Shown one piece after another: positions 16,690-30,425 of a stretch of 64,000 nt of DNA. A model generated the notes under the pieces. It saw only the letters and a list, made by a program, of their open reading frames with translations. It made no database searches and was not told the origin of the DNA. How positions within the stretch are numbered: the stretch's first letter is position 1; each line of letters opens with the position of its first letter. Position numbers and translations under genes: made by a program. Source of the DNA: Patescibacteria group bacterium (lineage in GTDB: Bacteria > Patescibacteriota > Dojkabacteria > GCA-002793355); contig BOKM01000001.1 in NCBI GenBank assembly GCA_016860985.1, positions 463,462 to 527,461 of the forward strand, in the 5' to 3' direction.

Positions 16690-16715
16690 AGAGAATTATA
16701 CTATTTCTCAATTGT

Positions 16716-16994
16716 TTACGAATCTTCGAGTTCTTGCTTGGCTGCTTCCCAATCCATGTTTGGAGTGACTGTGATTTGCAGACTCGTTCCATCGGCATTC
16801 AGTTGCCTTACATCAGTGACAACTTTACAAATTCTGTGTGCAAACTGACAACCCACACATCCCTGATCAGCAAGCACTTTATCTATTGCTGCTGCTTCAT
16901 CGGGAAGAAAGGGTGGTTCTCCTATTCCGACTCGATGAGTATTTTCTTCATTCTCACACGGCATTTTTTCTAAAATTTCCCATTCAGTAGCCAT
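16716..16994 (-). CDS. small hypothetical protein with a C-x32-C-x2-C-x6-C motif
   Basis: 92-aa acidic ORF wedged between uvrA and uvrC on the same strand. Cys at positions 13, 46, 49 and 56 could bind Zn or an Fe-S cluster. Confidence 0.4.
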   Translation of the reverse strand: MATEWEILEKMPCENEENTHRVGIGEPPFLPDEAAAIDKVLADQGCVGCQFAHRICKVVTDVRQLNADGTSLQITVTPNMDWEAAKQELEDS

Positions 16995-16997
16995 GTT

Positions 16998-19900
16998 TTA
17001 CTCCGCAATATCTAACTCTTTAAGCATCTTACCCGTCCAACTCCTTGGATTTCGTCTAATGTCACCTATTGTGCCTGTCGCTACGATTTCTCCACCACCA
17101 GTTCCACCTTCGGGACCTAAATCGATGAGATAGTCAGCTTCCGCGATAAAGTCGAGGTTATGTTCAATTACAAAAACACTATTCCCTGTCGCAACTAAGG
17201 TTTTTAATACTGCTACCAGTTTCTCAATATCTGCAAAATGCAGACCAGTAGTTGGTTCATCAAGGATGTAGATTGTTTTACCTGTCGAACGCCTTCCAAG
17301 TTCTGCTGATAACTTCACTCTTTGTGCCTCTCCACCCGACAACATTGGGGCTGGCTCTCCAAGCTTCAAATAGCCAAGCCCTACTTGCTGAAGCATTTCG
17401 AATTTTTCTCGAATCATCGAGATTTCTGAAAAGAAAGCAGCAGCTTCATCTACCGACATATCCAACACATCTGCAATATTCTTTCCTTTGTACAACACTT
17501 CTAGAACCTCAGACACATATCGCTTACCGTGACAAACATCACAGTCAATATACACATCGGGCATAAACTGCATTTCGATCTTTATCTTACCCTCTCCTTT
17601 ACAGGCTTCACAACGACCACCTTTCAGGTTGAAACTAAAGCGACTTGCGGTGTAACCTCGCACTTTGGAATCCTTTGTTTGAGCAAAAAGTTCTCGAATA
17701 TCGTCGAAAACCTTTGTGTATGTTGCAGGATTACTTCTTGGTGTTCTACCAATTGGCGACTGATCAATGTAAAGGAGCTTGTCAATAACATCCGATACGT
17801 ATAGGTTTCTGTATTCTGTGTCGGGGCTATCTGTTCTCAGACCAAGAGTCTTTTTGATAGCAGGCAACAAGGTTTCCACCACAAGGGAGCTCTTTCCTGA
17901 ACCTGAAACACCAGTTATTGCAACAAATTTTCCGAGCGGAAACTTAACCGTTACATCTTTTAGATTGTGTGTTTTTGCCCCAGAAAGCTCTAAATACCGG
18001 TCAGCTACGCGCATTCGGGCATGTGACGCAAGAGCATCGTTTAATTTTTTGTTCTTACCAAGCCCTAACTTCACGAGTTTTTCGACTTCTTTTGCAATTG
18101 TTTTCTTACCAGCTAAGTACGGGCCAGTTACAGATTCGGGGTTGTCCATAATCTCTTTTGGCGTACCCATAGCAACGATTTTTCCTCCACGATCTCCTGC
18201 ACCCTTACCAAAATCAAGTACAAGATCTGCATTCATCATGGTATCTCTGTCGTGCTCAACAACGATCACAGTATTTCCCAAATCACGAAGATGCTTTAAT
18301 GTCGCGATTAATCGATGTTGATCTCGTGCATGCAGCCCAATCGAAGGTTCATCTAGTACGTAAATTACCCCCGAAAGGCCTGTTCCAATCTGACTCGCAA
18401 GGCGAATTCGCTGTGCTTCTCCACCAGAAAGCGTAGTTGCAGTTCTACTCACGGTTAAGTATTCAAGCCCCACGTCTAATAGAAATTGCGAACGAAGGAG
18501 GATTTCTCGAATTACTGGTTGTGCAATTGTCTGAGCTTTTGAATCAAATTCTTTAATAAATCCCTTGGTCTCATCTGTAAACTCTTTGATGGTTAAATCG
18601 CAAAGCTGGGAGATATTTAGATTATTAATGGTTACCGCAAGCACAATATCTTTAAGCCTTGTTCCTTTACAAGTTGGGCACGTAACCGTACTCATAAACT
18701 TCTCAATTTCGGTTCGAATAAAATCTGAATTTGTTTCTTTATACCTGCGCTCTAAGTTCGGAATTATCCCCTCGTATTTGGCATGAAGCGAGCGTTCTGT
18801 TCCGTCTTGGCTCGAAAAGTACGTTACTTTGTACTTTTGATCTCCCGTTCCGTAAAGAATCAGGTGTAATTTACCCTCAGTAAGCATACTCACTGGCGTA
18901 TGAATCGAAATAGTGTGTGCATCACAGACTAGTTCAAGCAACCTTCTAAAGTAAGAATCTCTCTCAAGCATTTTTGCGTACGGCATGATGCCACCTGCAA
19001 GTATCGAACGCTTTCCGTCGATAATTCCCTCTGTTGATATCTTCTTTATAACGCCAAGTCCATCACATTCAGGGCAGGCACCGTGTGGGGAATTAAAGGA
19101 AAAATCTCTAGGTTCAAGATCAGGAACAGAAATACCGCATTTTTTACAACTTTTGGTAACGCTATAATCGTGGGAAAGTACTGAGGTTGGACGAGCAGGT
19201 ATTCCCGGTTGTGGATCTCTTATTTCTAAAATTCGAACAAAGGTTGGTTGAATTTTAAGTGCGGCCTCAACTGATTGAAATATTCTTGAGCGCATTTCTT
19301 TTAGCGCTTCTTCTGAATCAAAGAGCGTTTTGCTCACACTTAAGGTGTCGACTACTACTTCTATTTCGTGTTGCTTGTACTTGTCGAGCTGTGGCAACAT
19401 TAATTTCAAGTCAATATATTCACCATCAACTCGAACAACATTCCACCCCTGTTTTCGCAAGTTCATAAATACCTGCTCATATTCACCTTTTCTTCCAGAA
19501 ATTGGAACTGCGGTAATCATAAAGCGGAACCCAAATTTTTGAGTATTTTTATCGTTTTCGTATTCGCGTTTTATCTTCTGCAATAAACCATCTACTACCT
19601 GGTCAATTGTTTGGGAGGTAAGTACCGCCCCACATTGTGGACAATGCGCAACACCGACTCTCGCGTACAACAATCGTAGGTAATCATAGATCTCGGTGAT
19701 TGTACCAACAGTCGAACGAGGATTATGTGATACCGTTTTCTGGTCAATAGCTATAGAGGGTGACAATCCTTCAATTTTATCGACATCTGGCTTACGTAGT
19801 TCACCCAAGAATTGCCTTGCATATGCAGATAAGCTCTCCACATATTTTCGCTGGCCTTCGGCATAAATGGTATCCATTGCAAGTGAGCTCTTGCCAGACC

Positions 19901-20000
19901 CCGACAAGCCAGTAAAAACAATCAACTTGTTTTTTGGGATATCGACGTCAATATTCTTGAGATTGTTCTCGCGCGCACCGCGAATCGAGAGAAAGTCCAT
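16998..20000 (-). CDS. uvrA: excinuclease ABC subunit A
   Basis: Two ABC ATPase modules ('GLSGSGKSSLAMDTIYAEGQRKYVESLSAYARQFLG' and 'GVSGSGKSSLV'), zinc-finger Cys pairs and a length of 1000 aa. Confidence 0.95.
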   Translation of the reverse strand: MDFLSIRGARENNLKNIDVDIPKNKLIVFTGLSGSGKSSLAMDTIYAEGQRKYVESLSAYARQFLGELRKPDVDKIEGLSPSIAIDQKTVSHNPRSTVGTITEIYDYLRLLYARVGVAHCPQCGAVLTSQTIDQVVDGLLQKIKREYENDKNTQKFGFRFMITAVPISGRKGEYEQVFMNLRKQGWNVVRVDGEYIDLKLMLPQLDKYKQHEIEVVVDTLSVSKTLFDSEEALKEMRSRIFQSVEAALKIQPTFVRILEIRDPQPGIPARPTSVLSHDYSVTKSCKKCGISVPDLEPRDFSFNSPHGACPECDGLGVIKKISTEGIIDGKRSILAGGIMPYAKMLERDSYFRRLLELVCDAHTISIHTPVSMLTEGKLHLILYGTGDQKYKVTYFSSQDGTERSLHAKYEGIIPNLERRYKETNSDFIRTEIEKFMSTVTCPTCKGTRLKDIVLAVTINNLNISQLCDLTIKEFTDETKGFIKEFDSKAQTIAQPVIREILLRSQFLLDVGLEYLTVSRTATTLSGGEAQRIRLASQIGTGLSGVIYVLDEPSIGLHARDQHRLIATLKHLRDLGNTVIVVEHDRDTMMNADLVLDFGKGAGDRGGKIVAMGTPKEIMDNPESVTGPYLAGKKTIAKEVEKLVKLGLGKNKKLNDALASHARMRVADRYLELSGAKTHNLKDVTVKFPLGKFVAITGVSGSGKSSLVVETLLPAIKKTLGLRTDSPDTEYRNLYVSDVIDKLLYIDQSPIGRTPRSNPATYTKVFDDIRELFAQTKDSKVRGYTASRFSFNLKGGRCEACKGEGKIKIEMQFMPDVYIDCDVCHGKRYVSEVLEVLYKGKNIADVLDMSVDEAAAFFSEISMIREKFEMLQQVGLGYLKLGEPAPMLSGGEAQRVKLSAELGRRSTGKTIYILDEPTTGLHFADIEKLVAVLKTLVATGNSVFVIEHNLDFIAEADYLIDLGPEGGTGGGEIVATGTIGDIRRNPRSWTGKMLKELDIAE

Positions 20001-20045
20001 GAAGAGTATTATACAGGATTGTTCGAAAAAATGGAACTTATAACC

Positions 20046-20675
20046 TTATTGGACTCCGGCCTTCTTTAGCTTTGTAATCACAAAATATGTTAATGGTGTT
20101 GCCACTACTTCATATACTACTTTTACGACCCATTGAGTAAGAACCATCGTTACGATTTGTGCCGATGCTAATAGTCCTCCAAATGCGATCCCCAGAAATA
20201 AGATTGTATCTACACCTTCACCGAGCACCGTTGAGGAGATAGTTCTCAACCACAAAAACCTGCCCTTGGTCAATTCCTTGATTTTGTGCATGCTCCAAGC
20301 GTTTAAAAGAGAGCCTCCCAAATAGCCGGAAAATGAAGCAACGAGGATTCTCGGTGCTACACCTAAAATAGCATCAAAGCTGAGCTGTAAATCCCAAAAA
20401 GGAGCAGCAGGCAAGGCTTGGGCAGCAGCGATGGCAAGCACCACAATAAAGTTTGCAACAAAACCAAGTAGAATTGCGAATTTTGCTTTCTGAAATCCAA
20501 ATATCTCCGTCATTACATCTCCAATGATGTAACTTAATGGGAAAACTACTATACCAGCAGGAAGAAAAACGCCACCAAGTCCCACAATTTTTACAGCAAT
20601 TATATTGGCAGCAATCAGACAGGCAATAAATAAAGAGGTCAACCCAACAAAATAACCTGAATACATAATTTGCAA
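20046..20675 (-). CDS. yhhQ: queuosine-precursor (preQ0/preQ1) transporter, YhhQ/DUF165 (VUT) family
   Basis: ~209 aa with 6 TM helices and the YhhQ-like pattern 'IAANIIAVKIV...FPLSYIIGDVMTEIFG...FVANFIV'. TTG start. Divergent from the TGT-like operon. Confidence 0.75.
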   Translation of the reverse strand: MQIMYSGYFVGLTSLFIACLIAANIIAVKIVGLGGVFLPAGIVVFPLSYIIGDVMTEIFGFQKAKFAILLGFVANFIVVLAIAAAQALPAAPFWDLQLSFDAILGVAPRILVASFSGYLGGSLLNAWSMHKIKELTKGRFLWLRTISSTVLGEGVDTILFLGIAFGGLLASAQIVTMVLTQWVVKVVYEVVATPLTYFVITKLKKAGVQ

Positions 20676-20728
20676 TCAAATTTATCTTTCTACCGATGAT
20701 ACATTAAGTTAGGCCCCCCCTCAATAGC

Positions 20729-20757
20729 TTGACTATGGGACCGCACTTCTTTAAAAT
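20729..20757 (+). promoter_or_regulatory. sigma70-like promoter (TTGACT-17 nt-TAAAAT) ending 5 nt before the ATG at 20763 (leaderless)
   Basis: TTGACT at 20729-20734, 17-nt spacer, TAAAAT at 20752-20757, ATG at 20763. No Shine-Dalgarno sequence. Confidence 0.5.
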
Positions 20758-20762
20758 AACGC

Positions 20763-21545
20763 ATGCGCCTTGCGATTATTGCACCAAATGCATATCTGCA
20801 GGATTTTTCAGCTTTTCATAACAACTCATACCATCTTGTTCTTGCACATCGATTCAACTCCGAGCCCGAATACCGTAGTTTTTACATTGAGCAAAGAAAG
20901 AAGACTCACAGTTTTATAATTCTTGATAACGGAGCTTGCGAACTCGGAGAGTCGATTAACAATGGCACACTACTAGAAACTGCCAGTGTCCTTCGTCCTG
21001 ACGTACTTGTTCTTCCCGACGTCTTGCATCAAAGTCAAGCAACAATTGCCAGAACAGAGAAATTCATTGAGTCCTATAAACACCAGAACAAAATAAAGTG
21101 CAAATTGATGGCAGTTGTACAGGGCAAAACAAGAAAGGAGTGGCTCTCAACATTATCTTCCTTTACCTCTAATCCATATATCGATATGATTGGGATTTCG
21201 AGTACAAACGCCGTATACCCGAAGACAAAAAACTACTATACCAGAATCAAAACACTTAGGTATTTGCATCAAAGACAACTTATAGGGAAGAAAAAAATTC
21301 ATATGCTCGGGTTAGATGACTCTGGACACTTCGAATTACGTCATTTCTCAAAATATTCCTTCATCGAAGGAGCAGATTCTAGCGCTCCAGTAGTTCATGG
21401 AGCAAAAGGGATAAAAATTTACAAGAACAAGCGTTACGAAAAGATTCGAACGTATCTACCAAGCGATGCAATCCTCACGAAGGAGCAGGTATTAGCAGTA
21501 AAAGCTAATCTGCAAGTATTTTTTGACATGGCTTCACATGAATAG
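20763..21545 (+). CDS. TGT-like (tRNA/DNA-guanine transglycosylase-like, DpdA-like) minimal TIM-barrel protein, putative
   Basis: Four collinear matches to TGT motifs with TGT-like spacing: 'FIILDNGACE' (cf. ILTDSGGFQ, catalytic Asp), 'LMAVVQGK' (cf. FGIIQGS), 'IHMLGLDD' (cf. LMGVGKPDD) and 'GADSSAPV' (cf. FDCVMPTR). 260 aa, with no CxCxxC...H zinc subdomain. Confidence 0.45.
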   Translation: MRLAIIAPNAYLQDFSAFHNNSYHLVLAHRFNSEPEYRSFYIEQRKKTHSFIILDNGACELGESINNGTLLETASVLRPDVLVLPDVLHQSQATIARTEKFIESYKHQNKIKCKLMAVVQGKTRKEWLSTLSSFTSNPYIDMIGISSTNAVYPKTKNYYTRIKTLRYLHQRQLIGKKKIHMLGLDDSGHFELRHFSKYSFIEGADSSAPVVHGAKGIKIYKNKRYEKIRTYLPSDAILTKEQVLAVKANLQVFFDMASHE

Positions 21546-23292
21546 AAAAATATTTGTATCGGGCGAAGGTGCTCGAGGAGCAGGAAAAACCTCTACGTTA
21601 AATGTTCTACTGCAAGAATCTACGACTCCCACTGCTGTTAACAGGGTAGCCCCAAACATACCTACAGAGCACCTTCTTCTGATTGACACTCATAAAGCGA
21701 CAAGCCCGTTTCACAAGAGAGCGCTCGAAATACATAAACAGTGGGAAGAAGCCGTCAAAACCCCAGGTGAAGGTGCAGAGCGATTATCATGGAAAAAGTT
21801 TGAGCTCGGAATACTACAGCTACGGTATGAATCCGACAGCTATCACGACGCAACTAGCAAAGCGGAGCAAATTTTTCTCGATAGAGATATTGATACAGCT
21901 GTCGTATACTCTGCAGCAGAGATTATTTTATCCAATCCTCACAAATACGATTCGGTACGTTCGCATATTGCGCTACTACACAATCTATGGCAGAAAGTAT
22001 ATTCAGTATGCCAGACAAACGACTGGGACGTGAGCACTTTTCCACACCTTGATACCGAAGATGATGTCTTATCATTAGTTGATTTTTTAAAACAACAACC
22101 CTTAAGGGATATACCCACTAATACCTTTTACTTCTTTACAAAAGATAAGACTGAATCACTAAAAAGGAGCCACACTTTACGTATAGACACTGCACTCGAA
22201 TACAATCTCACCGTAGTACAGCAAGCAACACAAGATATTATCCAACCATTGTACCTCTATTCCTTTCTCATCCGAAAACAATTATTCCCTGAGGCGCAAG
22301 TTCATTATCTCTCTTCAGATGCGCACAACATCAAAGAGCTCGCGAATTTGGTAAAACTACATGTTAATACGACGACGCTTGAGGTTCCAGGCGCAGACCA
22401 TATCCCCGTTAAGCTACGAATACCTTTTAACAAAGACCACTCCCTACCCTCATCCATTGAGACGCTTAGCCAAGTAATATTCGAAAGCACTGTTGGATCA
22501 ACCTTCCCAAGCAAACGAGAAGTACACATTAATGGAGAATCAAATTGTGTTTACAACAATAAGGCACTGTACGAATACGCATCATTACTAGGACTTGGCC
22601 ACATTGAATTCGTCCAAATTCAACGAGAGACATTCTCTGAAACTTGTCCTGTCCACTGGGCGTGTATTGAGTGGCTTACTCCCCAAAGAGATACTGCACG
22701 AATAATTGATCTGACACCTTTTAGAATTAAGCCCTACATTTCCCAACCTTGTAAAGTTACACACAATGGGGATACATACCAACTGACCTCGCTCACACAA
22801 CAGCCTATTGAATTTACTCAAGTAAAGAAAGAAACGTCATTAATTCCAGAAAGAGCCATGGAATTCGCCTATAACGTTGAATATACTTTCCAGGAAGAAT
22901 CGTTACAAGCATTAACACGTGAGGGATATGAATTGTTAGGCCAATCAAACAACGAATCGCAGAATATATTTTTAACTATTAGGTTAGGAAGATTGTTGCA
23001 GAAACAGGAACGCATCCAAGAGGCAGTCGAATTGCTTGAGCGAGCAGTGACCACTTTCCCGCAAAATCTTATACTTGCCAGGGAAGTTGCAAAGTATGTC
23101 ATTGATGGGTACATTAAATTCGTACCACCGTATTTTTATACTTACCTCAGTAACGCAAACCAGATTCTTGAACGAACTACCCAAACAATGCGAGAACATG
23201 ATATTGATGAAACTGAAATCAATGCGTATTATGAGTATAGGAAATTTATTCCACATGCACTTAAGTTAATCACCGAAGAACATGAAAGTTGA
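21538..23292 (+). CDS. P-loop nucleoside/nucleotide-kinase-like domain fused to a ~400-aa uncharacterised Cys-containing, partly TPR-like C-terminal domain
   Basis: N-terminus 'KIFVSGEGARGAGKTST' is a dNK/thymidylate-kinase-type Walker A, followed by 'LDRDIDTAVVY'. The C-terminal region contains 'CVYNN', 'CPVHWACIEW', 'PCKVTHNGDTYQ' and a helical repeat (LERAVTTFPQNLILAREVAKYV). The ATG at 21538 overlaps the upstream stop by 8 nt; the track start is a TTG at 21523. Confidence 0.5.
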   Translation: MNRKIFVSGEGARGAGKTSTLNVLLQESTTPTAVNRVAPNIPTEHLLLIDTHKATSPFHKRALEIHKQWEEAVKTPGEGAERLSWKKFELGILQLRYESDSYHDATSKAEQIFLDRDIDTAVVYSAAEIILSNPHKYDSVRSHIALLHNLWQKVYSVCQTNDWDVSTFPHLDTEDDVLSLVDFLKQQPLRDIPTNTFYFFTKDKTESLKRSHTLRIDTALEYNLTVVQQATQDIIQPLYLYSFLIRKQLFPEAQVHYLSSDAHNIKELANLVKLHVNTTTLEVPGADHIPVKLRIPFNKDHSLPSSIETLSQVIFESTVGSTFPSKREVHINGESNCVYNNKALYEYASLLGLGHIEFVQIQRETFSETCPVHWACIEWLTPQRDTARIIDLTPFRIKPYISQPCKVTHNGDTYQLTSLTQQPIEFTQVKKETSLIPERAMEFAYNVEYTFQEESLQALTREGYELLGQSNNESQNIFLTIRLGRLLQKQERIQEAVELLERAVTTFPQNLILAREVAKYVIDGYIKFVPPYFYTYLSNANQILERTTQTMREHDIDETEINAYYEYRKFIPHALKLITEEHES

Positions 23293-23794
23293 TCAAGCAA
23301 AACTTGGAGTAGGTACAATCTGTTACCTACACTCAAACGACTCTTACTTACTAGGCGAAAAAAAGTACGGTGGCGCACAAGGTAAAGTTAATGGGTTTGG
23401 TGGCAAGATCGAAACGACAGACCAATCAATCTATGATGCAGTTAAGAGGGAATTTCGTGAAGAAACATCAATCCAACTCAACGCACCCAAGTATTGTGGC
23501 ATTATCGAAATTTTTAAGAACGAGACGAGAAAAGCAATTTTTTATCTGTTTAAAGCAGATGACTTTATCGGCCAACCTCAAGAATCTGAGGAGATGAAAG
23601 TGTACTGGGTGAAAAATACTGAGGTCCCTTTCGAAAAAATGTGGGCATCAGATGCATTATGGCTTCCACTCTTTCTTAAAAATGACAATATACGTGTAAA
23701 ACTTTATTTTCAGGAAGGCAATGACAAAGCAGATCGAATGGAAGTAACCTTTAATGCGACTCTAGATGAAACATATCACGAAAACTTTATCTAA
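23282..23794 (+). CDS. Nudix hydrolase
   Basis: Nudix box 'GGKIETTDQSIYDAVKREFREETSI' (GX5EX7REUXEEXGU-like). 170 aa. The start overlaps the upstream stop (ATGAAAGTTGA). Confidence 0.75.
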   Translation: MKVDQAKLGVGTICYLHSNDSYLLGEKKYGGAQGKVNGFGGKIETTDQSIYDAVKREFREETSIQLNAPKYCGIIEIFKNETRKAIFYLFKADDFIGQPQESEEMKVYWVKNTEVPFEKMWASDALWLPLFLKNDNIRVKLYFQEGNDKADRMEVTFNATLDETYHENFI

Positions 23795-24668
23795 GGTTCC
23801 ATCCTATTTGATAGAAACTATTGAGAAGGAATCTATTCCCTACCTCGAGCAAGTTCGTGTAAAGGAATATTCTAAACGTCTTCCACCACTTGAAGGGCAA
23901 AGAGTTGCAGTAATCCCTTGGAGTGGTGGGTTAGACTCAACAACCAGTCTTATCATGGCGATAGAAGCAGGCATCTCAATCAGGACCATATTTCTGAATT
24001 ACGGACAACCTTACATAAAGAAAGAATTGCTCGCAACCAATAAGTTAGAAAAACTGATACGCGCAAAATATCCGGAAGCAGATTGGACCGAGCATTACAT
24101 AGTCGATGTGAGCTTCATAGACCAGCTTGTGAAATCGAAATTCAACGGAGAATGGGGACATATTTTCCCAATGCGTAACTTTCTCATCCTTGAAGAATCA
24201 GCCGCGATAGCACAACCAAATAGATACACAGAAGTTTGGTTTAGCAGTGTGCAAGGAGAAATGCCTTATTCAGGAGGAGACAAGAGTGTGGTATTTCTCA
24301 CCTATATGAAAGAAATTTTTGGAAAACGGAATATTAATTTAACCACGCCGCTCGTCGGCCTCACAAAGGCAGATATGGTTCAATGGGCTATTGCCCAACT
24401 AGATAGGTTCCGTATTATTCGACATACGATATCCTGCTTCAACGGAGAAGGAGATTCCCACTGTGGTGAATGTCAAGCTTGTTTCAATCGTGCAGTAGCA
24501 TTTTTCGCTGCAAATCAACTCCCACTTAGCGGAGTCCCTTACCACAAAAACGCATTGCAAAATTTTGGAGAAAATTATATTCGTAAACTTGCTAAAGAAA
24601 GTTATTACTCCCCAACAAGAAGAAGCCAGTTACAGCAGTTCATAAACTTTATAAGCCAACAAACATGA
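23766..24668 (+). CDS. QueC-family PP-loop ATPase (7-cyano-7-deazaguanine synthase homologue) with a ~50-aa N-terminal extension
   Basis: Collinear with B. subtilis QueC: PP-loop 'VAVIPWSGGLDSTT' (SGGxDS), 'NYGQ' (cf. DYGQRH), 'PMRNFLIL' (cf. PGRNLLFL) and a C-terminal zinc site 'SCFNGEGDSHCGECQAC' (cf. CYNG...GCGECPAC). Confidence 0.8.
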   Translation: MKHITKTLSKVPSYLIETIEKESIPYLEQVRVKEYSKRLPPLEGQRVAVIPWSGGLDSTTSLIMAIEAGISIRTIFLNYGQPYIKKELLATNKLEKLIRAKYPEADWTEHYIVDVSFIDQLVKSKFNGEWGHIFPMRNFLILEESAAIAQPNRYTEVWFSSVQGEMPYSGGDKSVVFLTYMKEIFGKRNINLTTPLVGLTKADMVQWAIAQLDRFRIIRHTISCFNGEGDSHCGECQACFNRAVAFFAANQLPLSGVPYHKNALQNFGENYIRKLAKESYYSPTRRSQLQQFINFISQQT

Positions 24669-25534
24669 TTAGCTTTGTTATACCCTCTTATCAGCGAGCA
24701 GACGGTGCAATCTTTATGATACTTAATTTGTTGCACCAAACAGTTTTCACAAAATATCCAACAGAACTAATACTGTCTATTGATGAAACTGATACCCAAA
24801 AAGAATTGTATGCAAACTACATCATTCAAGCAAAAAAAATTGCGCAAGAAATCGTACCTGCATGTAACATATCACTCCTGGTTAATCAGACAAAAGGCTT
24901 AGTCGCAGCAAAGAATAACGCTGTGCGAGCTTCTAAATACGAGTTCATCATGATGCTCGATGATGATCTTGCTGCAGTAGATAATTACGTTGAAGCCTTG
25001 TTAGCCGACATGAAGGCTGCCCCTTCAGTAGGTGCTATTTCAGGATTTATAGTTTCATACCTTTCTGCTATATCTCACACTCAACCCTCCGATTTCATTG
25101 AAGAGGTACCTAAGGAATCGCATCTACAGACACTAAAACTGGACTCCAACAATGGTGCTTGGAGAACATTTTTCGGCAAGAAAGAGCAGGTCATGGATTG
25201 GAGTAGAATCAATAAGAATATTCCTTCTACGGTTCGCTATACCATGGACTATTTTGTCAATTCGTATCTCTTTAGAAGAAGCGCATACAACAAAATAGGT
25301 GGATACTCAAATGATTTAAATTCTAAGACATCTGCCCACGAGGAGGTCGATTTCACTTATAGAATGAGAAAAGCTGGCTACCAACTTCTTTTTAATCCAT
25401 TTGTCCAGATGTGGCATATTACCGTCGGCCACGGAGGTATCTACAAAGGAGCAGATTACAATGAGAGTAAAGAAATCTTAGAAAAAGAGTATAAAGAAAG
25501 TATACCTCTATTTGTTCAGTCGATTTCCAGGTAG
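24665..25534 (+). CDS. family 2 glycosyltransferase
   Basis: 'ISFVIPSYQRADG' N-terminal GT-A start and the 'FIMMLDDDL' DxD motif. ATGA overlap with the QueC-like stop. Confidence 0.7.
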   Translation: MISFVIPSYQRADGAIFMILNLLHQTVFTKYPTELILSIDETDTQKELYANYIIQAKKIAQEIVPACNISLLVNQTKGLVAAKNNAVRASKYEFIMMLDDDLAAVDNYVEALLADMKAAPSVGAISGFIVSYLSAISHTQPSDFIEEVPKESHLQTLKLDSNNGAWRTFFGKKEQVMDWSRINKNIPSTVRYTMDYFVNSYLFRRSAYNKIGGYSNDLNSKTSAHEEVDFTYRMRKAGYQLLFNPFVQMWHITVGHGGIYKGADYNESKEILEKEYKESIPLFVQSISR

Positions 25535-25577
25535 AATCCTTGCCCTCAAGCTGTTTCCGTGTTAAACTCGCGCAAAG

Positions 25578-26372
25578 ATGAAATCCCCGTATGTTCAGGG
25601 TTTGAAACAGGGGTTCGCCGAACTTTCAGTCTACTCTCTCGATTTCCTGTTTGGGTTATTCCAAGCAGTTGCGCTTGTCGGCTTTGAAATACTCCTGTGG
25701 ACTTTTGTCCTCCCTGCTGATAACCAAACTGCCCTATTTGAACGCACCTCTTATTTTTTGCTAGCCAATGGCATTGCCTTGGTAATCGGAGGTGCCCGAT
25801 ATCGCTTTGCCAGAGATTTATCACTCGTCATCAAAGAGGGAACGTTGTCGCACTACCTTCTTAAACCGATTAATCCTGTACTTTACATCTATTCAGAACA
25901 TGTTGGAGGAAAAGGACCAGATTTTATGATCGGATTAATTTTTATAATCATGGGAACTTTGTGGATACCGACCTTTACGCTCGTTAAGCTACCATTGTTG
26001 TTGATAACGCTGGCTGCAGCTCTCATAAATACAATCTCACTAAACGTTATCGCAGGGGCTGTAGCCTTTTGGACAACCGAGGCAAACGGTATTAAGAATG
26101 CCTTTGCGCAAACAACGCGATTATTTAACGGACAGCAAGTTCCCATCAATCTTTTCATGGAAATGATCAGTCCTTTTTGGGCGCAATTCTTGTATATTCT
26201 CCCCTTCGCAAGTGTTGCATATACGCCAACGCACATAGTTATTGCCAAAACATTCGACGCAATAGATTTTAGATTTATCATCGCTTCGATTATCTGGGCG
26301 TTCATTCTCCCGTTACTCGCAACACTAATTTGGAATAGAGGACTCAAACGATATGAGGGGACTGGTCTCTAA
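25578..26372 (+). CDS. ABC-2-type transporter permease (6 TM)
   Basis: 264-aa polytopic membrane protein. First of two permeases preceding an ABC ATPase in the same operon. Confidence 0.55.
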   Translation: MKSPYVQGLKQGFAELSVYSLDFLFGLFQAVALVGFEILLWTFVLPADNQTALFERTSYFLLANGIALVIGGARYRFARDLSLVIKEGTLSHYLLKPINPVLYIYSEHVGGKGPDFMIGLIFIIMGTLWIPTFTLVKLPLLLITLAAALINTISLNVIAGAVAFWTTEANGIKNAFAQTTRLFNGQQVPINLFMEMISPFWAQFLYILPFASVAYTPTHIVIAKTFDAIDFRFIIASIIWAFILPLLATLIWNRGLKRYEGTGL

Positions 26373-27171
26373 CCTACGATTCTACTTTCGAGTACTTGCA
26401 AAAAAGATTTTGTTTGCCTGGCAGATAGAAACGGCTTACGCAGGGAACACGATAGGTGAGCTTTTTTCAACCATTTTTTACAACATTACCTTTATTATTT
26501 TTATCGATATTGTACTGCGAAAATATAAGCTGCTCGCTGGCTACTCTTTCAACGATATGCTGGTACTTGTTTTTGTGACACAGATTGTATTCTATACAGG
26601 ACTAACTATTACTTACGATAGCATGTCAAAATTCGTACAATCTGTAAGAGATGGTATTTTTGATACGTACCTTCTCAAACCGATGTCTGTTTTCTTTCAA
26701 GTGATGACCTTAAGCATCAGGCCGTTTTCTGGGCTGTTCTTTTCTGTTCCACCATTGCTAATTTATGTAGTGCTCATCATTAAAAATCAAGCATTTCATC
26801 CCGAACCTTTTGGGCTAACGGTTGGCTTACTTGGAATGTTGGTTGGGATTCTCTACCTTCATTTTTATCGATTTACGTTTGCGATGTTCGTGTTTAAAAC
26901 AAAACAGGTAAAAAACCTACTCAAAACACTTGACCTACTTGGGGATGCTGGATCTTTTCCCTACGAGGCTTATGTTGAACCGTTTAGAACAATTGTCTTT
27001 TTTATTGCGCCATTTCTTGCTGCGGCTGCCATTCCTGCAACCTACTTCTTAAACAAAACGACTTCTCTTTGGCCATTTGTTATTCAGATTGGACTCATGC
27101 TATTTTTTATGACTACTGCACTACTTTTATGGAGAAAAGGATTAAAAGAATATGAATCAATTTCATCTTAA
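26353..27171 (+). CDS. ABC-2-type transporter permease (6 TM)
   Basis: 272-aa polytopic membrane protein. The start overlaps the previous permease stop. Confidence 0.55.
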   Translation: MRGLVSNLRFYFRVLAKKILFAWQIETAYAGNTIGELFSTIFYNITFIIFIDIVLRKYKLLAGYSFNDMLVLVFVTQIVFYTGLTITYDSMSKFVQSVRDGIFDTYLLKPMSVFFQVMTLSIRPFSGLFFSVPPLLIYVVLIIKNQAFHPEPFGLTVGLLGMLVGILYLHFYRFTFAMFVFKTKQVKNLLKTLDLLGDAGSFPYEAYVEPFRTIVFFIAPFLAAAAIPATYFLNKTTSLWPFVIQIGLMLFFMTTALLLWRKGLKEYESISS

Positions 27172-27186
27172 TTATTCACCCCTATT

Positions 27187-28170
27187 ATGAAACCAGTTAT
27201 CACTACACAAAACCTCAAAAAGGATTTTCTTGTTCCTGCACGACAGTCATTTTGGCAAAGACTGTTTACTCCAAAATACGAAGAAGTCACGGCTGTCGAC
27301 AACATTTCTTTTCACATTATGGAAGGCGAATCTGTTGCACTTCTTGGACCGAATGGCGCGGGCAAAACAACAACCATGAAAATGATGACCGGCATACTTT
27401 ATCCAACAGCCGGAAGTTGCAATGTGCTTGGATACAACCCTAATAAACGCAACCCTGCGATGCTTAAAAACATTGGCTTTGTAATGGGCAATAAAAGCAC
27501 GCTTTCTATGGACCTTTCCCCTATGCAAAACTACGAGCTTAACAGAGTTATTTACGATATTGATGCCACAAGATTTTATAACACGATAGACGAACTTGGG
27601 GAACTTCTTGAGGTAAAAGATCATTTATATAAACAAACACGAAAACTCTCGCTTGGACAAAGAATGAAAGCGGAAATGATAAACTCGATACTACACAGAC
27701 CGAAGATTCTCTTTCTAGACGAACCGACCATTGGACTAGACATCTCCTCTCAGAACAATATTCGCACATTTCTTAAAAAAGTTAACAAAGAGCTAGGAAC
27801 GACGATTATCCTTACGAGCCACAATATGGAAGATATTTCACAAGTTTCTGAAAGAGTACTTATAATCAATCAAGGCAAACTCGTTTACGACAACTCTCTC
27901 GAAATGCTGAAGCGGACTTTTTCAACAAAAAAATACATCAAGGTTATTGTTACAACAAAAGGAAACTCCCGCTCCTTTGAGAAAAAGTTTAAGCCATTTG
28001 GTGACATTGTCAGCTCTGGTAAAGATTTCGTGACGCTCGAAATTGATAAAAACAGACAGGCACCCATTATTGCAGCAATACTCAACATGGAGCACGTTCA
28101 TGATATCGATATTGAGGGGGTACCACTCACAAAAATCATAGAATCGATTTTCAAGAAAAAACTTGATTAG
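27187..28170 (+). CDS. ABC transporter ATP-binding protein with a C-terminal accessory (DUF4162-like) domain
   Basis: Walker A 'GPNGAGKTTTMKMM', signature 'LSLGQRMK', Walker B 'ILFLDEPTIGLD' and H-loop 'TSHNMED'. The C-terminal ~100-aa extension is typical of ABC-2 exporter ATPases. Confidence 0.9.
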   Translation: MKPVITTQNLKKDFLVPARQSFWQRLFTPKYEEVTAVDNISFHIMEGESVALLGPNGAGKTTTMKMMTGILYPTAGSCNVLGYNPNKRNPAMLKNIGFVMGNKSTLSMDLSPMQNYELNRVIYDIDATRFYNTIDELGELLEVKDHLYKQTRKLSLGQRMKAEMINSILHRPKILFLDEPTIGLDISSQNNIRTFLKKVNKELGTTIILTSHNMEDISQVSERVLIINQGKLVYDNSLEMLKRTFSTKKYIKVIVTTKGNSRSFEKKFKPFGDIVSSGKDFVTLEIDKNRQAPIIAAILNMEHVHDIDIEGVPLTKIIESIFKKKLD

Positions 28171-28178
28171 GTTACGTA

Positions 28179-28991
28179 TTACTTTGTTACTTGCAGTGTT
28201 TTCATAACCGAATCACAAATGGCGATGTACGACGCATCGATTGAACAATACGCACTAAACCAAATGTCCTTATTGTAGGTTAAGGCGGGTGAAGCACAAG
28301 GCGATGTAGTCGCATCAGAAATAACAGGTTCTGTGCACTCTTTCCCACTCGAGAGAGAAGAAGGCGTCACATACGCAACAGCAAAGCTGTAGCTACCCGA
28401 ATTACCAAATACCTTTTTAGAACGAACTCTTTTTAAATCCTTAATTGATGAACTCACATTGGTTAGTGATGAGTAACCCTGAATTTCATACAACTCATAA
28501 GGGAGGTTAAACGCCATAAAGGCCTTCGTTCCCTTTCGTAAGAGAATGCCATTCCAGGTCCCAATTTTTGTTTCTGATACCGTCACATCTGCCGGCAATT
28601 TCATAGTAAAAGTGAGTGTAAAACTACCCTCCCACTCTTTAATTTTGGCCGTCTTTGTTACTGTAGATGCGGTGGCAGTCGGGGTTGGCGTTGAGGTTGC
28701 AGAAGGTGTTGGAGATTCTGTTGGTGTATCAGAAACCGAAGGAGTCACACTCTCGGTTGGGGTAGGTGTGACGGTCACAGTAGGAGTTGGAGTCAATGGT
28801 GTTGGTGTTTTTTGTTTGCCGGCATAAAAGCCCAAAGCGGAGGCGAGTGCAATAAGCGCGACTACTAGGCCAATTATCAATCCTTTTGATAATGACTGCG
28901 ATTGCACTTGAGGCTCAATCTGCGGCTGGCTATCTAACTGAACGCCTTCTGCATTTGCTTCAGGCATATTTGTTGGCTGTGAAATTTCCAT
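28179..28991 (-). CDS. membrane-anchored surface protein with a Pro/Thr-rich linker
   Basis: TM anchor (LIIGLVVALIALASALGFYAG), then 'TPTPLTPTPTVTVTPTPTESVTPSVSDTPTESPTPSATSTPTPTATAS', then a globular C-terminal domain. Start moved to the internal Met (MEISQ); the track ORF extends to 29060. Confidence 0.5.
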   Translation of the reverse strand: MEISQPTNMPEANAEGVQLDSQPQIEPQVQSQSLSKGLIIGLVVALIALASALGFYAGKQKTPTPLTPTPTVTVTPTPTESVTPSVSDTPTESPTPSATSTPTPTATASTVTKTAKIKEWEGSFTLTFTMKLPADVTVSETKIGTWNGILLRKGTKAFMAFNLPYELYEIQGYSSLTNVSSSIKDLKRVRSKKVFGNSGSYSFAVAYVTPSSLSSGKECTEPVISDATTSPCASPALTYNKDIWFSAYCSIDASYIAICDSVMKTLQVTK

Positions 28992-29003
28992 AATGAAGAG
29001 TAG

Positions 29004-29053
29004 CGCGAATTTTCGAATCTGTAAAATGAAATGCCTCTGGCGAAAATTCGCGC
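29004..29053. promoter_or_regulatory. perfect 13-bp inverted repeat GCGCGAATTTTCG-(24 nt)-CGAAAATTCGCGC immediately upstream of the tyrS -10 element
   Basis: Arms at 29004-29016 and 29041-29053. An extended -10 TGTATAAT follows at 29060-29067, with the tyrS ATG at 29073. Confidence 0.35.
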
Positions 29054-29072
29054 AAAACATGTATAATCTACC

Positions 29073-30425
29073 ATGTCAAACTTATCAGTAGACGAGCGAA
29101 TTGCTCTCATAAAATCCATCACCGAAAATGGTGGAGAGTTCATCGGCGAAGATGAACTAGAAAAGGTCCTTACCTCTGGAGAGCAACTCTATACGTACGA
29201 TGGGTTCGAACCCTCTGGCCAAATGCATATTGCACAAGGAATTATCCGCGCAATTAACGTTAATAAGATGATTGACGCTGGCTTCACTTTTAGAATGTGG
29301 GTAGCTGACTGGTTCGGTTATTTGAATAACAAAATGGGCGGCGATTTAGAGAAAATAAAAACTGTTGGTCGCTATTTTGTTGAGATTTGGAAAGCAAGCG
29401 GCATGAATCTTGATAAAACAGAATTCCTTTGGACCTCAGATTTTGTTGGCCAGCGATGGTACTGGGAATTGGTTATGAAGATAGCCAAGGCAGTTACCCT
29501 CAAACGTGCGCTTAGAACAACTGCAATTATGGGGCGGACCGAAAGTGACGATCTTTCCGCTGGTCAAATCTTTTATCCGTGCATGCAAATTGCTGACATA
29601 TTCGGTGTTATGAATGCGCAAGTTACACAACTTGGGCTTGATCAGCAAAAAGTAAACGTTCTTGCTCGAGAAATAGGAGAAGAATTAGGTTACTGGAAAC
29701 CCGTAATTGTGAGCCATGGTATGTTGCAAGGATTGCAAAAGCCAGAAGACAAAAAACGAACAGTTATCTCAACCAACAATTTTATGGCTCAAGAACTGAT
29801 TTACAAAGGGAGTAAAGCTTCTATTGTAGTTCAAGGAAGAGAAGAAAACTGCATAACCCTCAGTTTTGTTAATACAAAACAAGACGTACTACGAACCGAA
29901 GATGTGTCCACAGAAAAAAGTATAAAGTACTTCGATTTGCAGATTACATTACACACCAATGGCGAGCTCGAAATACTCGAGAATACTCCAGAAAGAATGA
30001 TATCCATGAAGATGAGTAAATCAAAACCAGACACCGCCATCTTTATGACCGACACCTCAGAAGAAGTTCAGCGCAAAATTATGAAGGCATACTGTCCAGA
30101 AGGAATAATCGACGACAATCCCGTACTTGATTATTGCAAACAAATCATTTTTAACGCTCACTATCTAAAACGCGAAAATCCACTTCTGAAAGACGGGGTG
30201 TTCGAGATTAAGCGAAAACCAGAGTTCGGTGGAGATATCACCTTTGCATCGTATCAGGTACTTGAAAAAGCATATGCAGATAAACAAGTGTACCCACTTG
30301 ATCTAAAGAATACCGTTATTGAGTACTTGAATGCATTATTGCAACCAGTACGAGATCATTTTGAAAACAATGCCGAGGCAAAAGCACTTCTTGAACAGGT
30401 GCGTAGCTTTCAAGTATCACGCTAA
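29073..30425 (+). CDS. tyrS: tyrosyl-tRNA synthetase, archaeal/eukaryal type
   Basis: Collinear with M. jannaschii TyrRS: 'DGFEPSGQMHIAQ' (cf. IGFEPSGKIHLGH), 'AGFTFRMWVADWFGYLN', 'FYPCMQIADI', the KMSKS loop 'MKMSKSK', 'KAYCPEG' and 'KRKPEFGGDITFASY'. An ~88-aa insertion precedes KMSKS. Confidence 0.9.
   Translation: MSNLSVDERIALIKSITENGGEFIGEDELEKVLTSGEQLYTYDGFEPSGQMHIAQGIIRAINVNKMIDAGFTFRMWVADWFGYLNNKMGGDLEKIKTVGRYFVEIWKASGMNLDKTEFLWTSDFVGQRWYWELVMKIAKAVTLKRALRTTAIMGRTESDDLSAGQIFYPCMQIADIFGVMNAQVTQLGLDQQKVNVLAREIGEELGYWKPVIVSHGMLQGLQKPEDKKRTVISTNNFMAQELIYKGSKASIVVQGREENCITLSFVNTKQDVLRTEDVSTEKSIKYFDLQITLHTNGELEILENTPERMISMKMSKSKPDTAIFMTDTSEEVQRKIMKAYCPEGIIDDNPVLDYCKQIIFNAHYLKRENPLLKDGVFEIKRKPEFGGDITFASYQVLEKAYADKQVYPLDLKNTVIEYLNALLQPVRDHFENNAEAKALLEQVRSFQVSR

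Follow-up and report, generated by a model that had tools for sequence, protein, structure and literature searches.

7-Deazaguanine bases in DNA are known so far from phages and from bacterial Dpd restriction-modification islands (PMC10516641; PMC10164549), and both the modification of DNA by a DpdA and the DpdA3 subfamily of phages have already been described. Here we report on a stretch of 64,000 nucleotides (hereafter the window) from a Patescibacteria group bacterium (GenBank assembly GCA_016860985.1, contig BOKM01000001.1, positions 463,462 to 527,461 of the forward strand; positions below count from the first letter of the window), in which five consecutive open reading frames (ORF1 to ORF5) encode a minimal guanine transglycosylase, a kinase-like fusion protein, a Nudix hydrolase, a divergent relative of QueC and a GT2 glycosyltransferase. 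ORF1 has the fold of the DpdA3 subfamily and belongs to it, the five genes are a conserved unit, and this unit is linked to 7-deazaguanine supply. For the further proposal, that this chromosomal cassette of the Patescibacteria (Candidate Phyla Radiation, CPR) gives rise, in the DNA of the cell itself, to a 7-deazaguanine that is hypermodified and possibly glycosylated, we see the chances as about even. An earlier prediction, made from the sequence of the window (the original prediction), had proposed a 7-deazaguanine system in a combination unlike those known; consistent with this, a full-text literature search together with the surveys published in 2023-2026 on DpdA, on QueC and on deazapurine clusters yielded no cellular DpdA3, no such cassette, no ORF2 family, no QueC variant with the signature and neighborhood of ORF4, and no glycosyltransferase tied to a DpdA.

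The closest described relatives are viral. The DpdA3 subfamily was defined in 2023 in the groups of phiST, CP220 and immuto_2-6A, with CGPG_00065 from phiST as its prototype; the CP220 group and immuto_2-6A show 100% replacement of G, and the nucleoside of 7-amido-7-deazaguanine (ADG) is seen in the cytoplasm of infected cells (PMC10516641). These phages rely on the FolE/QueD/QueE/QueC pathway or on its products, and NTP pyrophosphatases and small kinases are frequent neighbors of their transglycosylase. The cassette shares with them a transglycosylase of the same subfamily (TM 0.84 to the phiST protein), but it is cellular and chromosomal rather than viral, it lacks DpdL, DpdM and DpdN, and the partners of its transglycosylase are different ones: a fusion of a thymidylate-kinase-like (TMK-like), a Cys/His/Asp and a TPR domain, an MTH1-type Nudix hydrolase, a divergent QueC and a GT2.

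In the bacterial Dpd restriction-modification system of Salmonella Montevideo, likewise chromosomal, a TGT-fold enzyme puts 7-deazaguanine (preQ0, then ADG) in the cell's own DNA, the base coming from the queuosine pathway (PMC10164549). The cassette differs in having neither the ParB-like ATPase DpdB nor DpdC nor the restriction genes DpdD-K; its enzyme is of the minimal DpdA3 type without the Ins8 insertion, and its kinase, Nudix, QueC-like and GT2 proteins have no Dpd counterpart. That the usual Dpd partners would be missing had been anticipated, and a PADLOC scan of the five cassette proteins returned only a QueC model, a weak QatC match and a match of the Nudix protein to PDC-S07 (E 9.5e-8), with no Dpd match apart from the QueC model.

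A functional analogy is offered by the hydroxymethylcytosine (hmC) pathway of T-even phages, which comprises the dCTPase gp56, the dCMP hydroxymethylase gp42, the dNMP kinase gp1 and alpha/beta-glucosyltransferases. The classes of enzyme are alike, namely a dNTP pyrophosphatase, a base-altering enzyme, a dNMP kinase and a DNA glycosyltransferase, whereas the pathway itself concerns C and not G, uses hydroxymethylation and not base exchange, draws on other protein families, is viral and replaces the base in full.

A DpdA3-type transglycosylase

ORF1 (20763..21545, plus strand; 260 aa) has no match in Pfam, DUF6610 (DpdA4) included, and phmmer and profile searches against the PDB were empty; it matches two PHROG families of unknown function (phrog_19058, E 1.5e-16). 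Its AF2 model, calculated from an 18-sequence alignment, is a (beta/alpha)8 TIM barrel with a pLDDT of 95.4 and a pTM of 0.92. In a Foldseek comparison of this model with the PDB, ranks 1-18 are all TGT or DpdA (7ui4), with a best E of 3.7e-7, and generic aldolase barrels come only after these; against BFVD the top hit is a 259-aa protein of Cellulophaga phage phiST (TM 0.84/0.84, E 5.8e-17). Searches with tblastn retrieve proteins of the CP220 group of Campylobacter phages (E 5e-12 to 2e-10) as well as, from Flavobacterium phage immuto_2-6A, a protein named "DNA guanine transglycosylase" (E 6e-9). Since the three phage groups matched are those that define DpdA3, we assign ORF1, by homologues and predicted structure, to the DpdA3 subfamily of the DpdA family. 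The original prediction had described a TGT-fold protein resembling DpdA: the fold is upheld by the model, and the resemblance turns out to be with the DpdA3 of phages instead of the bacterial DpdA.

Residues D55 (in ILDNGA), D86 (LPD), Q120, H180 and G183 (H-x-L-G-x) and D205 (DSSAPV) are invariant among the 18 sequences, and D55, D86 and D205 sit at strand ends of the modeled barrel. TGT and DpdA share three Asp residues that do not vary and are required for catalysis, as acid/base, in base binding and as nucleophile (PMC10164549). An hhalign comparison with E. coli TGT, which is not significant alone (E 0.53), sets HMLGL...DSSAPV over YLMGVG...DCVMPT, the nucleophile segment; D55 and D86 map onto the TGT/DpdA roles by motif only. 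The link between ORF1 and TGT is thus drawn from structure and DpdA3 homologues and not from a direct sequence match.

Homologues of ORF1 are rare, with 18 clusters among 5.8 billion proteins. Eight of these, 44-85% identical to ORF1, make up the ORF1 clade; the more distant relatives are viral and about 23-35% identical, and the cassette DpdA3 proteins form a separate clade, at 25-31% identity to the phage members, with the motifs ILDNGACE and SAPVVHG in place of ILDNGAYE and SAPVWRGW of the phages. At 260 aa, where TGTs have about 375 aa, ORF1 has neither their zinc subdomain nor the RNA-binding parts at their C-terminus.

Conservation of the cassette and its link to 7-deazaguanine supply

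For comparison we sampled the contigs of the ORF1 clade that were of sufficient length, two genomes found by a pattern scan and two lineages reached via ORF2. In 11 Patescibacteria-type lineages (the window, L080, L001, L002, L003, L011, L012, L083, L084, L087/88 and L089; L085 is cut after ORF2) the genes for ORF1, ORF2, Nudix, QueC-like protein and GT2 are found with order and orientation unchanged, and the set of five is complete wherever the contig is long enough. The carriers found by the pattern scan are labeled Candidatus Daviesbacteria and Candidatus Saccharimonadia. Amino-acid identity of the cassette proteins to those of the window is 25-62%, with ORF2 at 25-30% in the distant lineages. 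Given this recurrence in the same order in 11 lineages at such identities, the five-gene arrangement is not due to chance. The kinase/Nudix pair, which the original prediction had singled out, is conserved in every cassette and so integral to it. The G+C content of 39-41% across the region matches the genome around it and no integrase is present at the cassette, which is therefore a stable chromosomal trait and not a prophage; its neighbors in the 11 lineages are housekeeping genes rather than defense islands. One cassette of the Patescibacteria type (L002/L010, CAYUGO010000011.1) is found in a metagenome-assembled genome (MAG) labeled "uncultured Gammaproteobacteria", which probably reflects mis-binning or mislabeling.

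The gene upstream of the cassette encodes YhhQ in seven lineages (the window, L080, L001, L002, L084, L087/88 and L089). In the window it is divergent (20046..20675, minus strand) and separated from ORF1 by 87 nt; in L087 it is co-directional and overlaps the start of ORF1 by 4 nt. The protein of the window is full-length and had been correctly placed in its family: PF02592 (Vut_1) matches at E 1.9e-49, and TIGR00697, the "queuosine precursor transporter", at 118.9 bits against a cut-off of 50.95, as befits a predicted importer of a 7-deazaguanine precursor. Two other lineages, L003 and L083, have QueD and then QueE in the upstream position, and L011, L012 and L085 have no related supply gene upstream of the cassette. 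An importer of queuosine precursors and the pair QueD and QueE, which makes 7-carboxy-7-deazaguanine (CDG), are alternative sources of free 7-deazaguanine base. This alternation of YhhQ with QueD and QueE is the strongest evidence that the cassette consumes free 7-deazaguanine base and, together with the DpdA3 membership of ORF1, bears out the proposal of a 7-deazaguanine system. Within the 64 kb of the window itself, tblastn searches (E up to 1) for homologues of TGT, QueA, FolE, QueD, QueE and QueF gave only noise, in line with the predicted absence of folE, queD, queE and queF.

The window has, 43 nt after the GT2 gene, genes for two ABC-2 permeases (PF06182 in both) and a DrrA-like ATPase (PF00005), co-directional with the cassette (25578..28170, plus strand). 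This trio is found only in the window, in the near-identical contigs L017/L018 and in L080 (85-88% identical); it is missing from nine of the 11 lineages, including L001, L002, L003, L011, L012, L083, L087 and L089. L001 is otherwise syntenic (uvrA-yhhQ-cassette-tyrS-uvrB), and there a homologue of the gene at 28179-29060 of the window comes directly after GT2. The genes after GT2 vary among lineages and encode LGT, DnaJ, an HD protein, a histidine phosphatase or a lycopene cyclase-like protein. On this synteny we rejected the ABC-2 exporter as part of the system; the trio is a lineage-specific neighbor or insertion, outside the conserved cassette and unrelated to the pathway. The original prediction had joined a glycosyltransferase and an exporter to the first four genes; the GT2 stays, co-occurring with these in all 11 lineages, and the exporter, confined to the lineage of the window and L080, finds no comparative support. 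As a separate observation, some lineages have an extra phosphohydrolase gene directly after GT2, for the HD protein in L087/L088 (L087:10944-11576) and for the histidine phosphatase in L083 (L083:6178-6789).

The partner proteins

ORF2, at 584 aa, has three parts. The N-terminal domain (21538..22140, plus strand) has the fold and the motifs of a thymidylate-kinase-like P-loop phosphotransferase (P-loop fEGxxGxGK, DR(Y), and a PDLTxYLD-type motif). A middle domain of about 140 residues (22405..22833) has N-C337, P-x-H373-W and D391 as invariant columns among orthologues, and the last 150 or so residues (22834..23292) form a TPR-like helical repeat domain. The original prediction of a kinase-like domain fused to an unknown domain of about 400 aa thus stands for the kinase-like part, and the remainder resolves into the orphan Cys/His/Asp domain and the TPR-like domain. 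The structural model of ORF2, from a 4-sequence alignment and with a mean pLDDT of 60, is usable for the TMK-like and TPR domains only; of the two proteins for which a structure prediction had been suggested, it is ORF1 that could be placed in full, within the TGT fold. In the middle domain a predicted helix begins at C337 and is followed by strands bearing the His and the Asp (pLDDT 45-83), and C337, H373 and D391 may constitute a thiol-enzyme triad with a papain/transglutaminase-like resemblance, a guess at the level of motifs. Searches for a transglutaminase or papain fold in this domain were negative in Pfam (E up to 10), in a PDB profile search and in an hhalign comparison with E. coli YchA.

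The family of ORF2 is restricted to the cassette. An exhaustive hidden Markov model (HMM) search with the middle domain recovered 13 clusters from 1.84 billion cluster representatives at E < 1e-10, all of them cassette orthologues of 520-580 aa and of the same architecture, and a word-index search found the same four proteins only, whether with the single sequence or with a 7-sequence profile. A JGI metagenome scan contained no relatives of ORF2, and neither ORF2 nor the GT2 had a meaningful homologue in 50,697 phage records; pairwise BLASTP of the kinase domain against phage AAA_28 kinases was not significant.

For ORF3 (23282..23794, plus strand) phmmer against the PDB returned 26 NUDT1/MTH1 sequences at E 1e-23 to 1e-18, with E 9.7e-24 to NUDT1 over residues 21-142. 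The motifs NGFGGKxE...REFxEET (the Nudix box) and MWxxDxxW are invariant in eight orthologues, with S/G-D replacing the D-D of MW(P)DD..WFP, the segment that binds the base in NUDT1. By these matches ORF3 is a Nudix hydrolase of the MTH1/NUDT1 type and a predicted pyrophosphohydrolase of modified-purine (d)NTPs. A Pfam scan agrees with the family calls made in the original prediction for the Nudix, the GT2, the two ABC-2 permeases and the ATPase.

ORF4 (23766..24668, plus strand) had been called a bona fide QueC, a designation that we do not retain. PF06508 matches with 85 bits and the PP-loop and zinc ribbon are intact, but the scores lie below the QueC cut-offs (69.1 against 150.3 bits for TIGR00364; 51 against 378 for NF008317). 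The canonical signature, that of PF06508 cluster 1 as set out in 2026, comprises YxQxHxxE, VPxRN, YPDC and Y189, and in it Y35, R99, Y131 and Y189 are experimentally essential (PMC13329287). ORF4 and its orthologues, six in all, keep WSGGLDS and the zinc motif C(x)8CxxCxxC (C-FNGEGDSH-C-GE-C-QA-C). In YGQPYxxKE the Y35 and the Q are kept, H39 is changed to Y and the spacing is greater by one, and FPMRN keeps R99 (PxRN); YPDC has become SGGDKS with the loss of Y131, CYNG has become CFNG (Y189 to F), a segment of about 20 residues before PxRN is deleted, and there are extensions of 48 aa at the N-terminus and 55 aa at the C-terminus. These deviations are kept in the six orthologues and are absent from the ordinary bacterial and phage QueCs of the same alignment. 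We therefore read ORF4 from its motifs as an ATP-dependent PP-loop/zinc enzyme of the QueC family, but not a canonical QueC.

The same pattern, in which SGGxDS and the zinc ribbon are kept and the substrate motifs are remodeled, is found in the repurposed QueC proteins (Cap9, QatC, PF06508 clusters 4 and 5), and is seen where QueC has been co-opted to join CDG to a partner that is not ammonia (PMC13329287). ORF4 fits none of the signatures described there: unlike Cap9 it has no YxDC, unlike QatC it keeps YGQ, PxRN and the canonical C(x)8CxxCxxC spacing, and its neighborhood of DpdA3, Nudix and GT2 does not appear in that survey of PF06508. Matches of ORF4 to QatC and Cap9 are weak and partial, that to the QatC model reaching 27 bits (cut-off 280) over the zinc-ribbon region only.

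ORF5 (24665..25534, plus strand) is a predicted soluble GT-A (GT2) glycosyltransferase, with PF00535 in seven of seven orthologues (best E 4.5e-20) and invariant DDD and EEVDF motifs; at 49-62% identity across lineages it is among the best-conserved members of the cassette. The TET-associated glycosyltransferase family (TAGT, PF20691), which acts on 5hmC in DNA, matches six of the seven orthologues at E up to 0.01 (best E 1.8e-7) over the N-terminal half only, and for the ORF5 of the window the match is marginal, its 29.8 bits lying just above the gathering cut-off of 27.5. There is also a match to phrog_842, "beta-glucosyl-HMC-alpha-glucosyltransferase" (E 3e-7). The similarity of ORF5 to DNA-base glycosyltransferases appears weak and consistent.

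DpdA3 relatives in viruses and other genomes

Relatives of ORF1 were found in 47 IMG/VR loci, with FolE nearby in 33, QueE in 15 and QueC in 12, and QueD also present; the relatives usually lie inside a replication module that includes PolA and a primase of the DUF3987 type. Sets of 7-deazaguanine genes also surround ORF1 relatives in JGI contigs and in L005. There are no homologues of ORF2, Nudix or GT2 in the 47 loci. GenBank lists the Bacillus phage (BSTP/BSP group) homologues of DpdA3, for example L015:4932-5720, variously as NadR, as a polynucleotide kinase, as an integrase or as hypothetical proteins, apparent mis-annotations.

Next to DpdA3 genes of phages and prophages there are (d)NTP pyrophosphatases of four folds, these being MazG (L013:9405-9710), PRA-PH/MazG-like in immuto (L009:7222-7746), an HD domain fused to a kinase in CP220 (L008:6814-7845) and dUTPase_2 in the L028 group (L028:9057-9824), and the phiST pyrophosphatase CGPG_00068 likewise lies beside DpdA3 (PMC10516641). 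Small P-loop kinases, of the AAA_28 or AAA_18 type or true thymidylate kinases, are seen at a distance of a few genes from DpdA3 in several phages and MAGs, namely CP220, immuto, L052, Chryseobacterium phage MA9V-3 and L014 (L008:8765-9307; L009:9421-9945; L052:10121-10627; L016:5465-5935; L014:3826-4452), and two of them are annotated as "thymidylate kinase" in GenBank. A universal trio of DpdA3, kinase and NTP pyrophosphatase was considered and rejected, as a recognizable AAA_28 kinase is present in only one of the 47 IMG/VR loci and replication proteins are the commonest neighbors; the association of DpdA3 with kinase and pyrophosphatase is recurrent, not universal.

Three further arrangements were observed. 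A small phosphoribosyltransferase recurs beside FolE/DpdA3 in phage-like contigs (L009:5783-6178, L069:4609-5013, L079:1387-1755); it recalls the PRPP-dependent step of toyocamycin/tubercidin biosynthesis and gives a hint of nucleotide-level chemistry in DpdA3 phages. In a contig from a Eubacteriales MAG, a YhhQ gene (L013:8729-9403) lies within a phage-type module (primase-MCM, QueC, YhhQ, MazG, DpdA3-like, PolA, SNF2), and to judge from its gene content this (pro)phage would carry its own deazaguanine importer. Consecutive genes on a contig from a Pirellulales MAG (L014:470-4452) encode YhhQ, a DpdA3-like protein, a 146-aa ORF, a DNA glycosylase of the HhH-GPD type, a methyltransferase that uses SAM and a thymidylate kinase, which may be a different cellular DpdA3 arrangement.

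A proposed pathway and its alternatives

In the pathway that we favor, the base is supplied, as the comparison of genomes shows, either by YhhQ, through import, or by QueD and QueE, which make CDG. As its family membership implies, ORF1 would swap guanine for the deazaguanine base by the double displacement of TGT and DpdA, with D55 as presumed acid/base, D205 as nucleophile, and D86 and Q120 reading the base. ORF4 might then activate the 7-carboxyl with ATP to yield an amide or nitrile derivative, and the remodeling of its pocket points to a larger substrate or to a nucleophile that is not ammonia; ORF5 could add a sugar, in the manner of the DNA-base glycosyltransferases that act on 5-hydroxymethylcytosine (5hmC). 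ORF3 would be expected to hydrolyze a modified purine (d)NTP to the monophosphate, and the TMK-like domain of ORF2 to phosphorylate a (deoxy)nucleoside monophosphate. These two may keep the nucleotide pool clean, so that DNA receives the modified base by the intended route only, or may be part of that route; since bacterial DpdA requires the ATPase DpdB (PMC10164549), a helper role like that of this NTPase is also conceivable for them. The Cys/His/Asp domain of ORF2 is a candidate glutaminase, or could catalyze some other acyl- or imidoyl-transfer step on the 7-substituent.

That the Nudix is of the MTH1 type and the kinase TMK-like speaks for this pathway, as the characterized relatives act on purine or deoxynucleotide substrates. 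Several points weigh against it. A model at the level of DNA leaves the kinase and the Nudix without a necessary role, and CDG, ADG and preQ0 offer no obvious acceptor hydroxyl to a glycosyltransferase; ORF5, moreover, scores higher on generic polysaccharide GT2 models than on TAGT. The cassette proteins include no DpdB-like ParB ATPase, and no restriction or nuclease partner is visible at the cassette. ORF1 is without Ins8, the DNA-binding insertion that makes up 30% of bacterial DpdA (PMC10164549). DpdA3 itself has never been reconstituted, attempts in E. coli having failed, and its substrate is conjectural as to whether it is DNA or a nucleotide and as to the base, the candidates put forward being CDG, DG and ADG (PMC10516641). 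The isoelectric points of the cassette proteins follow lineage and not function, and the isoelectric point was dropped as a proxy for DNA binding.

The lack of a necessary role for kinase and Nudix would be remedied if the modification were made before replication, in the nucleotide pool and by the logic of T4 hmC, a scheme that we nevertheless hold to be unlikely. The Nudix would convert dGTP or deaza-dGTP to the monophosphate, ORF1 would turn dGMP and deazaguanine base into deaza-dGMP and guanine, the kinase would rephosphorylate the product and the replicative polymerase would incorporate it; the QueC-like protein and GT2 would decorate it, be it before or after incorporation. Three nucleotide-handling activities are present in every cassette, and this is the sole scheme that gives each a necessary role. 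ORF1 is a bare barrel of 260 aa without the nucleic-acid-binding insertions of TGT or DpdA (PMC10164549); phage DpdA3 lies beside dNTP pyrophosphatases of four folds and, in phiST, beside CGPG_00068, DpdA3 phages reach 100% replacement of G, ADG nucleoside is seen in the cytoplasm of infected cells, and DpdA3 has resisted reconstitution as a DNA enzyme (PMC10516641). Small P-loop kinases near DpdA3 (in CP220, immuto, L052, MA9V-3 and L014) and the phosphoribosyltransferase that recurs beside FolE/DpdA3 argue in the same direction. However, the association does not hold generally, since near DpdA3 the majority of the 47 viral loci show replication genes only, and replication modules of phages often contain MazG-type genes and kinases in any case. 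Activity on mononucleotides is known for no enzyme of the TGT family, the preference of MTH1-type enzymes for damaged or modified purine dNTPs fits pool sanitation equally well, and depletion of dGTP would be costly to the cell. The view stated in the literature is that DpdA3 inserts its base after replication (PMC10516641). The generalization that the cassette and, by extension, the phage DpdA3 systems are pre-replicative, with DpdA3 as a mononucleotide guanine:7-deazaguanine transglycosylase and a glycosylated 7-deazaguanine as end product, is accordingly one that we entertain only tentatively and with more doubt than belief.

Other products than modified DNA can also be envisaged. Glycosylated queuosines exist, and one enzyme making them belongs to GT2, so that ORF1 might insert 7-deazaguanine in tRNA or another RNA and GT2 glycosylate it, as QTGAL and QTMAN do in animals; we consider this improbable. 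YhhQ is the classic transporter of queuosine-precursor salvage, TGT-fold enzymes are ancestrally tRNA enzymes, and the window contains no canonical tgt or queA, an absence that covers only 64 kb of a genome of about 1.05 Mb. Yet ORF1 lacks the zinc subdomain and C-terminal RNA-binding parts of TGT, a dNMP-kinase-like domain with an MTH1-type dNTPase is better suited to DNA precursors, and ORF1 groups with DpdA3, the phage members of which are tied to fully modified DNA genomes (PMC10516641). The exporter 43 nt after GT2 in the window would accord with a soluble deazapurine nucleoside or glycoside resembling toyocamycin, tubercidin or huimycin, secreted in the lineage of the window by the adjacent ABC-2 proteins, but it is missing from nine of the 11 lineages. 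A Nudix hydrolase, TubG, works in tubercidin biosynthesis. Actinomycete clusters are known in which glycosyltransferases act on preQ0 as a free scaffold and homologues of QueC serve as amide synthetases, although the same study takes the presence of a DpdA as an exclusion criterion for secondary metabolism (bioRxiv 10.64898/2026.04.15.718813). With no phosphoribosyltransferase, reductase or other typical tailoring enzyme in the cassette and hosts with genomes of about 1 Mb, such a metabolite is quite improbable. Very improbable indeed is an anti-phage defense module in which deazaguanine is attached to protein, as by Cap9/Cap10 of type IV CBASS or QatC of QatABCD, with ORF2 as target or effector. 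The QueC family has twice been repurposed for protein carboxy-deazaguanylation (PMC13329287; bioRxiv 10.1101/2025.04.06.647259), and ORF4, with its remodeled pocket and extensions, is QatC-like to that degree; its partial QatC and Cap9 matches and that of the Nudix to the PADLOC candidate PDC-S07 (E 9.5e-8) would also fit. Against this, the QatC match of 27 bits against a cut-off of 280 is confined to the zinc ribbon, neither the window nor the related loci contain a CD-NTase, QatA, QatB, QatD or a recognizable effector, ORF1 is structurally closest to DpdA3, TGT and DpdA, and the cassette sits among housekeeping genes and not in defense islands.

Patescibacteria are ultra-small episymbionts, and their DNA chemistry is essentially unexplored. 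If the cassette does modify DNA, it would be the first DpdA3-type system found as a stable cellular chromosomal trait, specifically in the Patescibacteria, and would bring four enzyme types new to deazaguanine biology: a glycosyltransferase, a Nudix of the MTH1 type, a QueC repurposed in a fourth way, and a fusion of kinase, thiol enzyme and TPR domain that occurs nowhere else. The cassette predicts a DNA base that is new and possibly glycosylated; when Patescibacteria DNA is cloned, cut with restriction enzymes or basecalled from long reads, such a base would have an effect. With its conserved pair of kinase and Nudix, the cassette gives a handle on whether DpdA3 acts on DNA or on nucleotides; a pre-replicative route, if true, would give the T4 glucosyl-hmC scheme its first counterpart for guanine and provide the first TGT-fold enzyme working on free nucleotides. 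Should the product be a glycosylated deazaguanine, or the route pre-replicative, the system would be more than a variant of the known DpdA modification.

Locus layout and neighboring genes

All nine ORFs are present as originally predicted, eight on the plus strand at 20763-28170 and the divergent yhhQ at 20046-20675, and the junction sizes given for them were confirmed by measurement. ORF1 and ORF2 overlap by 8 nt if ORF2 begins at ATG 21538, the start of the public gene call (584 aa), or by 23 nt from TTG 21523. The overlaps are 11 nt between ORF2 and Nudix, 29 nt between Nudix and QueC-like, and 4 nt between QueC-like and GT2; a gap of 43 nt precedes the first ABC-2 permease, the two permeases overlap by 20 nt, and 15 nt separate the second from the ATPase. 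The contig measures 1,051,512 bp, and NCBI product names for ORF1 to ORF5 are hypothetical, hypothetical, 8-oxo-dGTP diphosphatase, 7-cyano-7-deazaguanine synthase and GT2 family protein.

A single, translationally coupled transcript had been proposed for the eight genes, and the overlaps agree with it. A promoter-like TTGACT-17-TAAAAT occurs at 20729-20757, in the divergent intergenic region of 87 nt (20676..20762), but such sites are no commoner than in shuffled sequence; because promoter-like and terminator-like matches alike are as frequent in shuffles, these scans are uninformative and the single transcript rests on the gene overlaps. Rfam detected neither a preQ1 nor any other riboswitch in this intergenic region or elsewhere in 19800-29200 (E up to 1).

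The cassette is flanked by uvrA, tyrS and uvrB. Within 18 kb the window has uvrC, uvrA and uvrB (15358-20000 and 31203-33257), the cassette sitting between uvrA and tyrS/uvrB, and the uvr-cassette-tyrS synteny is common to the window, L001 and L080. The gene at 28179-29060 (minus strand) encodes a protein of 293 aa with one predicted membrane span, a long linker rich in Thr, Pro and Ser, and no Pfam family. The tyrosyl-tRNA synthetase at 29073-30425 (plus strand), of 450 aa, has what appears from its sequence to be an insertion of about 80 residues in the middle of the catalytic domain (about residues 225-305), and in L001 and L080 this enzyme is of the same length as in the window.

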